A DNA stretch of 40,851 nt from a virus. Its lineage: Duplodnaviria; Heunggongvirae; Uroviricota; Caudoviricetes. Positions 14,070 to 18,359 of this stretch are shown one piece after another. A program made the position numbers and the translations under genes. Location of the stretch: IMG/VR virus record IMGVR_UViG_2671180411_000016; one strand, 5' to 3'. Within the stretch, counting starts at the first letter, position 1; each line of letters starts with the position of its first letter. A model generated the notes under the pieces. The model saw nothing but the letters and a program-made list of their open reading frames with translations, ran no database searches and was not told where the DNA came from.

Positions 14070-15377
14070 TTAAATCCGAAGTGATGTGACTCTTCCGGTC
14101 GGTTTGACAATAGGGAATTGCTTAACGATGAAATAACCTCCGGCATCATTCGGGTGATCATTGCCAGATTTTTTATCAGGCTCCCCCTTCTCATCCCAGA
14201 CCTGTTGCTCCAGAGATTCGGCATATAACGGGCAACGCTTCACATTAACTTTATAGCGACGCTCACCATTGGCATTGCAGAACATTGCATTCATTGAGTT
14301 AACGCGATCTTTTACTGGCGGGTTCGAGCTGTTCACCACAACGTTAAAACCAGCCTGCTTAAGCTGGGCTATATCCGTCGTACTTGCGTTACTTGATTTT
14401 CTGGAATCCCCGGAAGCATCTGGATAAATATAAATTTCCCTCACTTTCCGGTAATCATTCCCATCATACAGCCAGAAGCGTTCTTTAATGATGCGGATCA
14501 TATCCGGCGTATCGTAGGCATTGATGATTTCAGTTACCGCACATGGAAGCCCCAAACGCAGCACATGGACGATTCCCGCCATCTTTCCAACGTTAAAATC
14601 CATCCCAATATAAATCGGCTCCCCTGGCTGCTCCACTTCTTCGCAATTATTCAGTTTCCGGTCAAACTGATGGTAAACAGTACCACTTGTCAGGTTAGTA
14701 AACTGTCCTCGAAGATAGGCTTTAATCAGCTCTGGAGGGTATGATTCAAGAAGCGAAGGAATGTAATCTGCTGGCAGGTTCTTTTCATTATCGAAAGTAG
14801 ATGCCTGCACCAGACCATACAGTGAGGCCAGCTCTGTTTTTTCACGCACGGCTTTAACAAACTGCTCGTAGACAAATTTGAATCCTTCCGGCGTGGTTGT
14901 AACGTCAATACCGTTGCGAAGTCCATCAATCTTATAACGCATACGTGCAATTATCTTGCGCCACGCCGTTCTGGCTTTTTCCTTCGGCAAAATGTCCAGT
15001 TCATCCACCAACGCATTACCAATTTTGAAACCGACGATCGTTTGTGGCTTCTCCATCGATCTGCAGATAGTGGTTCCCCGATACTGGCGTCCGTAATAAA
15101 AGTGAACCTCTTTATTTCCCTCATTAATTTTTACGTTCAATCCCCAGTCAGCAGCAACTTCTTCCACTGTAGGGTAAAAAATATCGCGAATTTGGGGATA
15201 CGTTGGCGCAAAATATCCCTGATTTATACCTGGATGCTCCCAAATCCCCTTGCATATGCCGCCACACCCAACCCATGTTTTGCCCGAGCCAAAACCAGCA
15301 ATATAGGCTTTAAATTTATGGGGCATTGAAAGAAATCGCGCCTGAGGCACATTAAGCGTCGGAGAGATCATCTTCAT
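14070..15377 (-). CDS. terminase large subunit
   Basis: Walker A GFGSGKT near the N-terminus; 436 aa ORF; first codon of the track ORF is GTG, ATG at 15377. Confidence 0.9.
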   Translation of the reverse strand: MKMISPTLNVPQARFLSMPHKFKAYIAGFGSGKTWVGCGGICKGIWEHPGINQGYFAPTYPQIRDIFYPTVEEVAADWGLNVKINEGNKEVHFYYGRQYRGTTICRSMEKPQTIVGFKIGNALVDELDILPKEKARTAWRKIIARMRYKIDGLRNGIDVTTTPEGFKFVYEQFVKAVREKTELASLYGLVQASTFDNEKNLPADYIPSLLESYPPELIKAYLRGQFTNLTSGTVYHQFDRKLNNCEEVEQPGEPIYIGMDFNVGKMAGIVHVLRLGLPCAVTEIINAYDTPDMIRIIKERFWLYDGNDYRKVREIYIYPDASGDSRKSSNASTTDIAQLKQAGFNVVVNSSNPPVKDRVNSMNAMFCNANGERRYKVNVKRCPLYAESLEQQVWDEKGEPDKKSGNDHPNDAGGYFIVKQFPIVKPTGRVTSLRI

Positions 15378-16455
15378 CACTCCTTACTCTGGCATCAACC
15401 ACATTAATATTGATCGCCACAGGCTGGGGATGTTCATTATCTTCCACCGTTTCGATCTCTTTGCGCAGCTTCTGGTTTTCCATTCTGCGCCGTTCAATTT
15501 CCAGTTCCCGTAGCCGCTTATCTGCACATAAAGCCCCGCCAGCAGAAAACAAACGCAACAATTCACGNNNNNNNNNNNNNNNNNNNNNNNNNNNNNNNNN
15601 NNNNNNNNNNNNNNNNNNNNNNNNNNNNNNNNNNNNNNNNNNNNNNNNNNNNNNNNNNNNNNNNNNNNNNNNNNNNNNNNNNNNNNNNNNNNNNNNNNNN
15701 NNNNNNNNNNNNNNNNNNNNNNNNNNNNNNNNNNNNNNNNNNNNNNNNNNNNNNNNNNNNNNNNNNNNNNNNNNNNNNNNNNNNNNNNNNNNNNNNNNNN
15801 NNNNNNNNNNNNNNNNNNNNTCTGCTATATCGCGCCACTGGTAGAGATGATTCTCGCCCCAGCAATAACGGCAGTTAACACGGCGAAATTGTGCAAGCTG
15901 ATTGGGGTCGGCCAGGACAATAGCCATCAACTGACTCACTAGTAAATCCAGGTCTGCGGTATAGCGTTTCTGGTACTGATTGCGGAAGTAGCTGATAGCG
16001 CGAAAAACCCTGGCATTTCTAAGCATACGACTGGCGTTGCTGTTAGCTGTCGCACCTTGCCCCTCATAACCGGCTAGTCGGTACGCCTCTGTCGGCTTTT
16101 TACCCTGAGCAACAAGCATCGCAAACTTAGCCTGCTGGTCAGAAATGCCGAATTCATCGGGACAGAACGAAAATTCCTCCGCGTCGCCCTCATTCAGGCC
16201 CGCATCGAATACTGGCTTTTTTTCCTGAGATTTTTCGTTCCGCTTTTGTGCAGTCTGCGCAGATTTTTTCTGCGCACTTTTTTGCGCAGTTTTGCACATT
16301 TCTGTCTGCGCATTTTTCGGAGTTTTTTTGATGTAACGACGGGCTGTTGCGTAATTCAGTCCCCTTGCTTCACACCATGCCACCGGAGATATACCGGAGC
16401 GGGTGTATTCAGCAATATACTCCTGCTGCAACGCCCCCCAGTCCGGTCTGCTCAT
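15352..16455 (-). CDS. terminase small subunit (interrupted by N-run 15568..15820)
   Basis: N-terminal HTH-like region, K/A/Q-rich linker, TEAYRLAGY motif typical of small terminases; overlaps the large terminase start. Confidence 0.8.
   Translation of the reverse strand: MSRPDWGALQQEYIAEYTRSGISPVAWCEARGLNYATARRYIKKTPKNAQTEMCKTAQKSAQKKSAQTAQKRNEKSQEKKPVFDAGLNEGDAEEFSFCPDEFGISDQQAKFAMLVAQGKKPTEAYRLAGYEGQGATANSNASRMLRNARVFRAISYFRNQYQKRYTADLDLLVSQLMAIVLADPNQLAQFRRVNCRYCWGENHLYQWRDIAXXXXXXXXXXXXXXXXXXXXXXXXXXXXXXXXXXXXXXXXXXXXXXXXXXXXXXXXXXXXXXXXXXXXXXXXXXXXXXXXXXXXXRELLRLFSAGGALCADKRLRELEIERRRMENQKLRKEIETVEDNEHPQPVAININVVDARVRSDEDDLSDA
16246..16330. repeat. five copies of TGCGCA (one TGCACA) each followed by a T-run, inside the 5' part of the small-terminase gene
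   Basis: Read directly: TGCGCA at 16256, 16271, 16283, 16307 and TGCACA at 16293, each followed by T4-7. Confidence 0.6.
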
Positions 16456-16458
16456 CAG

Positions 16459-16710
16459 TTAGTCCTGATTTTTATCCACCCTGAGTAGTTCGCGCAGAGC
16501 AAAGGCATCCCCTTTTCTGGCAAGCTTAAACAATGCCGCTCGTAACTCGGCTTCACCTTTCGCTCTGCCCTTACGGATGGCCGCATAAAAATCTGTCATT
16601 GCTTCCCGATTTTCTTTCAGTCGGTTCAGATCAACATCCAGAACGTCAGCGATTTGTTGTGCAGTCATCCGGCACGCTGCCAGAGACTCGACTTTCGAAT
16701 ACGGAATCAT
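16459..16710 (-). CDS. small hypothetical protein upstream of terminase
   Basis: 83 aa ORF; its stop lies 3 nt from the small-terminase ATG. Confidence 0.45.
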   Translation of the reverse strand: MIPYSKVESLAACRMTAQQIADVLDVDLNRLKENREAMTDFYAAIRKGRAKGEAELRAALFKLARKGDAFALRELLRVDKNQD

Positions 16711-17578
16711 TTGTCACCCCCATTGATATGCAGGGTGTCTTCTTCCTGTATTTTTCGTGAAGGATTTTTACTGCAGCGTTGTTCCAGGTGACCTGATGGT
16801 GAATGCGTTTATGACTGGCACCCATAAGTGAGATTTTTACGCACGACGGCGCATACATGACGGAGTAAAAACTTTTAACGTAGGTTCCGGAATCCAGATA
16901 CAGCTCGGTCATTCCGCCGCTGTTTTTCTGCGTCTGTTTCTGCCCTAACTGGACAGCACCGATCGTCATAAACAATTCACCACAGCGACCGAGATTCGTG
17001 TACGTATTCACATCCTCGTTAATGCGCCCCATGAATGAGAACGGTCGATCAACCGAACAGATAAAGCTGTTCATTGCCTTGCGTTTCACCCACGAAGCAT
17101 GGCCGCCATTGTCACCAAGAAAATCCCCGCCCTGCGACATAGCGATGGAAAGAGCAGGTATTGATTCGTAGTACGCAAGCATTTCAGAAAGGATCTCATC
17201 CAGTTTCCTTATCGGGAAATAGGCCTGGTCATAGTTGCGATCCACCCGAAACTGGAACTCGTGATAATCATCATCGAGCTGAATGAAGTATTTACACCCG
17301 ACCAGTTTTGCCTGGTCGAAACAGGCATTACGGGCGTAAAAAATTGAGCGGCGGTCACTAAAATTATCGGCTTCGTCAAAACGACTAGCAATATCGGCTT
17401 TGGAAAATACCAGCACCTGTTCACCAAATTCAGCCATGTACTGATGCCGTGTCTTATCTTCATCATCAACAACGATAAAAATTTTCCCGGTATAGCCAGC
17501 ACGACGCAACGTCCGGTAAGTCAGAACTTTGTCCGGTCGCCCGTGAGTCAGAATAAAGGCGCAAAAATCATCACGCAT
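16646..17578 (-). CDS. hypothetical protein with two acidic DxD-like motifs (IVVDDED, QLDDDY); possible nucleotide-sugar transferase-like fold
   Basis: ORF 16646..17596; ATG 17578 is preceded by GGAGGAGG and overlaps the ParB-like stop by 8 nt. Confidence 0.5.
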   Translation of the reverse strand: MRDDFCAFILTHGRPDKVLTYRTLRRAGYTGKIFIVVDDEDKTRHQYMAEFGEQVLVFSKADIASRFDEADNFSDRRSIFYARNACFDQAKLVGCKYFIQLDDDYHEFQFRVDRNYDQAYFPIRKLDEILSEMLAYYESIPALSIAMSQGGDFLGDNGGHASWVKRKAMNSFICSVDRPFSFMGRINEDVNTYTNLGRCGELFMTIGAVQLGQKQTQKNSGGMTELYLDSGTYVKSFYSVMYAPSCVKISLMGASHKRIHHQVTWNNAAVKILHEKYRKKTPCISMGVTNDSVFESRVSGSVPDDCTTNR

Positions 17579-18359
17579 ATTCCTCCTCCCCGCCATGCAT
17601 GATCTCCACCATGCGCTGCGTCATTCGGACAAATCCATTTTCAATAGCCTGCTGATAATCAATGATCACCAGCGCCGACTCCTCGAAAAGGCACTGAATT
17701 TCAGCGGGGGCATGAGCGTAATAGTCCGCAATTCTGCTGAAATTAAACACCGTGTGACGTTCTGCTGCACACAGGAGGAATTTCTCAATATCAGGATCAA
17801 GGGACGCCGAACGTATCCGGCTGATCAGCTCCTGAGTTTTCGTATCGTCGTACAGTTCACTGATATCCGGTTTACCGCCTGACGGCTCATAAACAGGCGT
17901 ATCAATTTTCGTCGTATACGGCTCCTCCTCATTTCCTGTACCGGGCAAAACATCCGTCAACAGTTCATCAATTTCTGCCGGGATGAAGCCTGTCAGGGAG
18001 ACATCAAAATCAGCATTGATTAGGTCCGACAGCTCCATCCGCAACAGATCTTCATCCCAGCCAGCATTCATCGGCAGGCGATTATCTGCCAGGCGGTACG
18101 CCTTTTTCTGCTCATCCGTCAGGCCAGACAGAACAATGACCGGAACAGAATCCATTTTGAGCATTTCAGCCGCCATAACACGACCGTGACCCGCAATAAT
18201 TTCGCCCTTTTCGTCAATCAGCACCGGATTAGTCCAGCCGAATTGCTTAATACTTTCTACCAGTTGTGCCACCTGCTCAGTACTGTGCGTCCTGGCGTTG
18301 TGCGCATACGGTGACAATTCTTGTAATGGGCGATAGACTATCTTTAATTTCTCGCTCAT
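17571..18359 (-). CDS. ParB N-terminal (ParB/sulfiredoxin-like nuclease) domain protein
   Basis: 262 aa; motif IIAGHGRVMAA typical of the ParB N-terminal domain. Confidence 0.75.
   Translation of the reverse strand: MSEKLKIVYRPLQELSPYAHNARTHSTEQVAQLVESIKQFGWTNPVLIDEKGEIIAGHGRVMAAEMLKMDSVPVIVLSGLTDEQKKAYRLADNRLPMNAGWDEDLLRMELSDLINADFDVSLTGFIPAEIDELLTDVLPGTGNEEEPYTTKIDTPVYEPSGGKPDISELYDDTKTQELISRIRSASLDPDIEKFLLCAAERHTVFNFSRIADYYAHAPAEIQCLFEESALVIIDYQQAIENGFVRMTQRMVEIMHGGEEEYA

Follow-up and report, generated by a model that had tools for sequence, protein, structure and literature searches.

We analysed a window of 40,851 nt (the whole stretch of DNA under study; IMG/VR record IMGVR_UViG_2671180411_000016, class Caudoviricetes), which is a Rac-like lambdoid Escherichia coli prophage, and focused on an array of palindromic TGCGCA-type hexamers inside its gene for the small terminase, TerS. 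Comparative evidence set out below suggests that this array is probably the part of a P1-type packaging-initiation (pac) site that TerS recognizes. The array lies in the 5′ third of the minus-strand gene terS and directly follows the sequence for an N-terminal helix-turn-helix (HTH) domain of the protein. The relevant features, including those taken from an AlphaFold2 (AF2) model with its per-residue confidence score (predicted local distance difference test, pLDDT), are as follows:

14070–15380, minus strand: large terminase TerL (Terminase_6N and 6C), the proposed nuclease and motor that would cut near the array.
15352–16455, minus strand: small terminase TerS, an open reading frame (ORF) of 367 aa, partly N-masked in the window; the unmasked homologue has 364 aa.
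16324–16455, minus strand: PacA-like three-helix HTH domain, codons 1–44, the proposed hexamer reader (hhalign, PHROG, AF2).
16330–16353, minus strand: recognition helix, aa 35–42, YATARRYI, with the Arg39 codon at 16339–16341.
16210–16323, minus strand: Lys/Ala/Gln-rich linker, aa 45–82, AF2 pLDDT ~50, whose coding DNA carries the array.
16247–16312: array of six palindromic hexamers found by pattern search (four exact TGCGCA and two with one mismatch), the proposed TerS-recognition part of pac.
16307–16312: hexamer 1, TGCGCA, gene nt 143, AAT GCG CAG (N-A-Q).
16293–16298: hexamer 2, degenerate, TGCACA on the plus strand and TGTGCA on the coding strand, gene nt 157, ATG TGC AAA (M-C-K).
16283–16288: hexamer 3, TGCGCA, gene nt 167, ACT GCG CAA (T-A-Q).
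16271–16276: hexamer 4, TGCGCA, gene nt 179, AGT GCG CAG (S-A-Q).
16256–16261: hexamer 5, TGCGCA, gene nt 194, TCT GCG CAG (S-A-Q).
16247–16252: hexamer 6, degenerate, TGTGCA on the plus strand, gene nt 203, ACT GCA CAA (T-A-Q).

A preliminary description of this stretch had counted five copies; the four TGCGCA and the TGCACA at 16293 are indeed there, and a sixth, TGTGCA at 16247, had gone uncounted. The spacing it gave, 12–24 bp, is slightly off, the start-to-start distances of the six hexamers within 66 bp being 9, 15, 12, 10 and 14 bp. Its placement of the repeats in the 5′ third of the small-terminase gene holds (gene nt 143–208 of the ORF 15352–16455), as does its reading of the coding strand as a Lys/Ala/Gln linker (...KNAQTEMCKTAQKSAQKKSAQTAQK...), and the T-run that it saw after each copy exists on the plus strand, although these runs are the AAA codons of Lys and not the conserved part of the array. 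Hexamer 2 appears in most E. coli-type relatives as ATG/GTG/TTG CGC AAA, an exact TGCGCA in another frame encoding Met/Val/Leu-Arg-Lys, and this comparison marks the TGCACA copy as a TGCGCA that has mutated, read in a frame other than that of the x-Ala-Gln copies; hexamer 6 has, in many relatives, the GCG codon that makes it an exact TGCGCA. A description of the array as a regular tandem repeat was rejected, as tandem-repeat and generic repeat finders return weak 12–15 bp periods at best, and so was a 12-nt inverted repeat just downstream (16165–16176/16229–16240), the changes of which in relatives are non-compensatory. Just after the array the gene contains, in frame, a slippery heptamer of dnaX/IS3 type, A AAA AAG (~16214–16220, minus strand; GAA AAA AAG), at which a −1 shift would lead to a stop about nine codons on and to a product consisting of HTH and linker only; we left it out of the element because it is confined to E. 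coli-type sequences, and it is probably incidental.

The simplest alternative, a chance cluster in an A/T-rich coding stretch of low complexity, can be weighed first within the window and then against relatives. The window alone is suggestive of a non-chance array: TGCGCA occurs 19 times in all of it, against 15–16 expected, four copies within 70 bp arose in 0 of 2000 first-order Markov simulations, and the array is the top cluster among all hexamers of the window, whereas a cluster of at least four copies of some hexamer did arise in 17 of 300 simulations. It is the comparative data that make the array solid as a signal, since it recurs in all 121 unique relatives with an ARRY-type recognition helix (defined below), and 312 of the 431 clusters of at least three TGCGCA within 100 bp, found in 1.7 Mb of related loci, adjoin helix-coding sequence; the exceptions listed are a second block in Klebsiella-type terS and an AHRY helix variant missed by the motif test. 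Chance, to which we give next to no credence, thus appears effectively refuted by the comparison of loci.

For comparison, ~330 related loci were gathered; representative genomes contributed only four when scanned, and diversity was supplied by IMG/VR and by GenBank phages. The ‘phage’ records nearest the window (vB_EcoS-...R..) are in-silico prophage predictions, so that their ends are uninformative on packaging. Masking as N affects 1234 bases of the window (for example 13.4–13.7 kb and 15563–15840); these include ~280 bp of terS and some of the portal gene, and ORF calls made there are unreliable. The unmasked 364-aa TerS was taken from a GenBank record 99.7% identical. Assembly-derived proteins with frameshifted linkers were excluded as likely homopolymer sequencing errors. 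Such linkers leave and re-enter the frame at A-runs (P0011, P0019, P0022, P0024, P0030, P0035, P0037 and others; for example KKLRKMRRQKCAKLRKK...), most likely through these errors, and they reveal that all three frames of the array stretch encode basic peptides.

Across relatives, five or six exact TGCGCA (range 3–8) are found at the same place, held in two or three reading frames (x-Ala-Gln, Met/Leu/Val-Arg and Cys-Ala). E. coli types carry xxT GCG CAr copies plus an aTG CGC Aaa copy, Serratia fonticola (53% protein identity) has kept five TGCGCA, of which two use the Arg frame, and the Klebsiella phage ST974-OXA48phi18.2 has six that use all three frames (TAQ/PAQ, CTG CGC ACT and AAG TGC GCA). 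Klebsiella-type terS genes add a second cluster of three TGCGCA in two frames ~160 bp downstream, giving a 6+3 layout like the 4+3 of P1:

L087:2371–2415, gene nt 359–402: second TGCGCA cluster in terS of ST974-OXA48phi18.2, present also in 60+ IMG/VR relatives; in Klebsiella-type genes the three hexamers of this block are placed at nt 359–397.

When the linker peptide was held fixed and synonymous codons were drawn from each locus’s own usage, 0.4–0.9 TGCGCA were expected in six clades against 5–6 observed (P-values from 9.5e-5 down to <5e-6). The same test applied to the pac site of P1 returned eight hexamers against 2.46 expected (P = 3e-5), which indicates that the method recognizes a real pac site, and the arrays described here score higher. 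Among 47 unique Klebsiella-type sequences, moreover, 7 of 36 hexamer sites are variable compared to 20 of 36 sites of the interspersed linker (Fisher p = 0.003), a ~3-fold lower variability of hexamer bases than of intervening linker bases; the latter vary more than any other positions of the region, and more than the third codon positions of the adjacent domain. Hexamer flanks hold 0.0–0.8 bit per position, those that are A-rich 0.4–0.8 bit, and neighbouring hexamers lie 7–36 bp apart; weak flanks and variable spacing around a constant core mark the 6-bp core, rather than a longer duplicated unit, as the conserved object. In the 44 adjacent codons, 42–53% of synonymous codons differ between the E. 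coli, Klebsiella and Serratia clades, and the hexamers are therefore not merely young duplicates. Together, these comparisons indicate that the hexamer, and not the Lys/Ala/Gln peptide, is selected, and that it is selected at the DNA level.

A competing account holds that the array is a passenger without DNA-level function, namely the footprint of a slippage-prone Lys/Ala/Gln linker shaped by duplication, loss and compensating frameshifts in A-runs. Copy-number variants do occur (one TAQ more in L070, loss of units in L071 and L072, and other differences in P0009, P0056 and P0065), the peptides K-T-A-Q-K and K-L-R-K-K are related by +1/−1 A-run shifts that could move the hexamer between frames, and the linker between hexamers is essentially unconstrained. 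Yet the supposed units share conserved cores but neither flanks nor spacing, the arrays persist across clades despite the synonymous divergence of neighbouring codons, P1 has a proven cis site at the homologous position, and slippage does not predict the finding described next, a hexamer that changes together with two recognition-helix residues. We consider this account unlikely.

An unbiased search for the commonest hexamer on either strand in the 136 bp after the helix, run over 51 unique N-termini, returned TGCGCA in 41 of 41 with a (S/T)ARRYIK helix and TGCGAA in 10 of 10 with (S/T)AKRYI(K/R). Extended to 134 unique pairs of N-terminus and array, the mean numbers of hexamers (range in brackets) by helix type were:

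ARRY helix (n = 121): TGCGCA 5.48 (3–8); TGCGAA/TTCGCA 0.02; YGATCA 0.31.
AKRY helix (n = 10): TGCGCA 0; TGCGAA/TTCGCA 5.7 (4–7); YGATCA 0.
ARTR helix, 933W (n = 2): TGCGCA 1.5; TGCGAA/TTCGCA 0; YGATCA 4.

Arg39 or Lys39, a residue located in the third (recognition) helix of the modelled three-helix HTH, thus tracks TGCGCA or TGCGAA in relatives, and in the AKRY group the hexamer often sits within a 12-bp palindrome, TGCGAATTCGCA. The HTH domains of two loci, L258 and L287, differ only at D11H, R39K and K44V, and their hexamers differ, while GER2, a TerS of the 933W family that has an ARRY helix, is accompanied by a TGCGCA array. The encoded peptide signatures agree with the helix as well (A-Q/H versus A-N in 98 representatives at 50% identity; Fisher 3e-11). 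From these alignments, the hexamer co-varies with the recognition helix of the adjacent domain.

This adjacent domain opens a protein that consists of a PacA-like HTH, the linker and a Terminase_2 core with a CxxC...CxxC insert. In the AF2 model, helices span residues 6–20, 24–31 and 35–42 at a pLDDT of 76–87, and the linker is of low confidence. Profile alignment by hhalign matches TerS aa 6–48 to aa 3–45 of P1 PacA (probability 88.7%, E = 2.6e-6, 43 columns), and the N-terminus of PacA aligns to MSRPDWGALQQEYIAEYTRSGISPVAWCEARGLNYATARRYIKK, with LN(Y/P)xTARRY(I/L)(K/R) as the common motif. A PHROG search with the N-terminal 110 aa hits PHROG 1711 (PacA; E = 3.6e-6) and PHROG 370 (933W TerS; E = 1.6e-17), and PacA itself matches PHROG 370 (E = 1.9e-4). 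The same domain, according to tblastn, starts the small terminases of 933W-type Shiga-toxin (Stx) phages and of Yersinia, Providencia, Klebsiella and other E. coli phages; it is N-terminal on small terminases of at least three PHROG families (51, 370 and 1711), including Terminase_2 proteins with or without the CxxC insert, and occurs in 191 protein clusters at 50% identity, most representatives of which are not annotated. Pfam gave no meaningful match for the N-terminal 59 aa, and a sequence search of the PDB with the domain profile gave none. As to the rest of the protein, PF03592 (Terminase_2) reaches 22.3 bits on the N-masked TerS of the window, under its 26.1 cut-off, and all listed homologues, of which several are 99% identical, have it as a precomputed domain, with scores in relatives of 101.9 bits (Klebsiella), 40.8 (Serratia) and 49.7 (Yersinia); by these matches the window protein can be placed among the SPP1-type (Terminase_2) small terminases as Pfam defines them. 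Its core (15352–16092, unmasked in L001) contains an inserted CRYCWG ... CPKCCGEG that is zinc-ribbon-like and shows a weak DnaJ_CXXCXGXG match in relatives. Six further proteins (P0142, P0196, P0226, P0229, P0258 and P0268) carry 4–7 tandem related HTH domains (...SG.S...WC...I.Y.T...) and look unrelated to terminases. A different fate of the domain is seen in phage Rac-SA53 (L002:3544–4572), where terS is annotated as a gene O-terS fusion formed by deletion and the PacA-like HTH is lost; the junction lies inside the array, homology to the window stops near 16303, and two exact TGCGCA are left, which would fit, anecdotally, a relaxed constraint on the hexamers once the reader domain is gone.

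The closest precedent for a reader domain followed by its own sites is phage P1, whose pac, of proven function, occupies 161 bp of pacA and holds seven TGATCA/G hexamers; synonymous mutation of the hexamers lowers phage titre ~9-fold (PMC10028697). In the P1 record, HEX4 (four TGATCA in two frames, encoding MIIDHSNDQHAGDH) starts at pacA nt 193, cleavage is annotated at nt 275–284 and HEX3 lies at nt 323–351. Both systems thus have clustered palindromic hexamers directly after a homologous HTH in the 5′ part of the small-terminase gene (starting at nt 193 in P1 and nt 143 here), and in both the hexamers use more than one reading frame and exceed codon expectation. The two differ in the remainder of TerS, a Terminase_2 core with a zinc-ribbon-like insert here and the PacA body in P1, and in TerL, which is of Terminase_6 type here and PacB in P1. 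On the strength of the DNA-level selection, the adjoining PacA-like HTH and the co-variation with its helix, we find it probable that this is a headful-packaging phage with a P1-type pac site, of which the TGCGCA array is the part recognized by TerS. The preliminary description, which had called the repeats a plausible packaging recognition element, is to this extent supported, with P1 and not P22 as the right precedent; SPP1, which it had also invoked, offers a parallel through the Terminase_2 core only.

In the mechanism that we infer, the small terminase would be made late in infection, with its PacA-like HTH domains tethered by flexible Lys-rich linkers to an oligomeric Terminase_2 core. 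These domains would bind several of the six close-set palindromic hexamers at once on concatemeric DNA, and such multivalent binding would mark the phage DNA and position the large terminase for a first cut near the array. Headful packaging would follow, probably towards terL, as in P1. That packaging would be headful is suggested by the kin of TerL, which include a headful/pac Dhillonvirus, by transduction and terminal redundancy in 933W and by the precedent of P1: an identity search gives Jersey-, Kaguna- and Dhillon-type siphoviruses as the nearest studied relatives of TerL, at 40–51% identity, one Dhillonvirus has been reported as headful/pac by PhageTerm (PMC13348001), and 933W, which has a terminally redundant chromosome, carries out generalized transduction (PMC3752737).

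A TerS-binding array could also serve a purpose other than packaging, for instance autoregulation of the terminase or late operon, with pac cleavage specified elsewhere. Co-variation speaks for binding and not for the purpose of binding, and the window is without the second block and the integration host factor (IHF) site that P1 needs for cleavage. Set against this, the sole characterised homologue uses equivalent repeats for pac recognition and cleavage, the domain stands at the N-terminus of small terminases in several PHROG families, and no promoter-type context is evident inside the gene; we think a non-packaging role quite unlikely.

Several observations weigh against a P1-type pac site and should be set beside the evidence above. 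With regard to P1 itself, the hexamer here is TGCGCA and not TGATCA/G and has no GATC; without a Dam site, the methylation control of P1 is inapplicable, and no methyltransferase domain was found in ten ORFs scanned at 23.7–38.9 kb and five around terS. A P1-like methylation control was accordingly rejected for this array. Where P1 has 4+3 hexamers in blocks that flank the cut, the window has a single array of six, and a second block is absent from the window and from all E. coli-type relatives; a scan by consensus only for the IHF site (WATCAANNNNTTR) gave no match on either strand of 15800–16800. The PacA homology covers 43 columns at 21% identity, and Foldseek searches with the AF2 model returned HTH matches, none of them significant (E > 0.5). 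Two of the six hexamers in the window are degenerate, and the hexamer sites of Klebsiella-type sequences, 19% of which vary, are not invariant. A comparison of hexamer conservation with synonymous drift, proposed in the preliminary description, bears out the persistence of hexamers beside heavily drifted codons, but the difference is not significant when synonymous sites alone are considered (3/12 versus 7/12, p = 0.21), and within the E. coli-type sets alone hexamer sites do not differ significantly from the other sites (p = 0.74 and 0.08). The AKRY clade may be one lineage, and the counts behind the co-variation are not phylogenetically independent; a clade effect alone is made less likely by the near-isogenic pair L258/L287 and by a second switch within the 933W family. 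The record of the 933W-type phage vB_EcoP_phi296 (L251, PV189400) is linearised ~790 nt into terS and not at the repeats. Finally, the message is predicted to fold much more strongly than shuffled sequences (z = −4.74 in the window, −3.95 in the Klebsiella phage, and no equally stable sequence among 200 shuffles), which favours the view that self-complementary hexamers are kept for hairpins in the terS mRNA that tune inter-domain translation or stability. We judge such an mRNA element very unlikely: the hexamers keep their sequence but vary in number, in spacing and in the partners with which they pair, a pattern opposite to that of a structured RNA; strong folding is inevitable wherever palindromic hexamers form an array; and the link to the recognition helix is left unexplained. 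Because it is sequence and not pairing architecture that is conserved, we regard the strong folding as a by-product.

Comparison with other pac systems places the proposed P1-type site among known designs. Phage 933W shares the N-terminal module and has a hexamer array at the same position: its terS (L250:1640–1683, gene nt 140–183) contains four (C/T)GATCAT at an exact 12-bp spacing, encoding the peptide IDHE IDHK TDHE IDHD, each with a Dam GATC site as in P1 pac, and two TGYGCA 50–75 bp further on. It differs in pairing an ARTR helix with YGATCAT repeats and in the body of its protein, and its (C/T)GATCAT array is a candidate pac site of Stx phages. The record of vB_EcoP_phi296 notes that the genome is circularly permuted, yet also mentions cohesive ends. 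With SPP1 and SF6 the prophage shares a TerS core of the Pfam Terminase_2 family and, for its proposed pac, a location at the 5′ end of the TerS gene. The A-rich flanks here recall the A-tracts of SPP1 pacL, whereas the repeats themselves are 6-bp palindromes unrelated to the SPP1 boxes. Here an additional PacA-like HTH, proposed to be sequence-specific, precedes the Terminase_2 domain; in the SF6-type ring, HTH motifs make contacts with DNA that are largely independent of its sequence (PMC4737164). P22, a lambdoid headful phage, has its pac inside the small-terminase gene, as is proposed here, but as a single asymmetric 22-bp site in gene 3 and with a TerS of another family, and the 22-bp sequence has no match in the window with up to three mismatches.

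The gene neighbourhood is that of a Rac-like prophage, with recE/recT, sieB, the Q antiterminator and trkG followed by a minus-strand late operon; lysis genes are present in relatives. Besides the two terminase genes, the late operon comprises:

17571–18359, minus strand: ParB-N protein.
16646–17596, minus strand: TET-associated-type glycosyltransferase (PF20691, E = 4e-34).
16459–16710, minus strand: 83-aa ORF.
After the large terminase, minus strand: DUF4055 portal and P22-type coat genes.

The glycosyltransferase and the ParB-N protein (16646–18359) lie directly upstream of the terminase genes and may represent what is left of a DNA-modification module, or a variant of one; neither a TET/JBP dioxygenase nor a DNA methyltransferase turned up among the ORFs scanned.

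The position of the sites, written in the DNA of a tolerant linker right after their reader, means that reader and site are inherited as one cassette and travel together, which would account for the module being found on different terminase bodies. A broader proposal, on which we are evenly divided, is that HTH and array form a portable, self-contained cassette of packaging specificity carried by at least four TerS bodies, its specificity being determined by one or two recognition-helix residues. If so, the bodies would be P1 PacA, the 933W type, canonical Terminase_2 and Terminase_2 with the zinc-ribbon-like insert; Arg39→Lys together with Lys44→Val/Ile would switch TGCGCA to TGCGAA, and ARTR would read GATC-containing hexamers.

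Pac sites inside small-terminase genes and the hexamer design of P1 are already known. In the searchable literature we found no description of the PacA-like module on terminases of Rac-like, Klebsiella, Yersinia and Stx phages, nor of the TGCGCA/TGCGAA versions of the hexamer and their co-variation with the helix. Few pac sites have been defined, and we found none described for Rac-like lambdoid prophages, while the segment of HTH and array is present in 883 of 5426 complete E. coli genomes, and carriers of the domain include Shiga-toxin phages and Klebsiella prophages. Should the assignment be correct, the start of packaging would be predictable from sequence, and with it how far and in which direction neighbouring genes, among them trkG here and toxin genes in relatives, would be moved by generalized or lateral transduction. 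TGCGCA, TGCGAA and the GATC type, with their near-isogenic readers, would form a natural specificity series in which to study small-terminase specificity, and the arrays would be candidate short pac cassettes for transducing phagemids, as has been done with P1. If reader and array indeed constitute a portable cassette, pac specificity, and hence the DNA that is transduced, would be both readable from sequence and reprogrammable.

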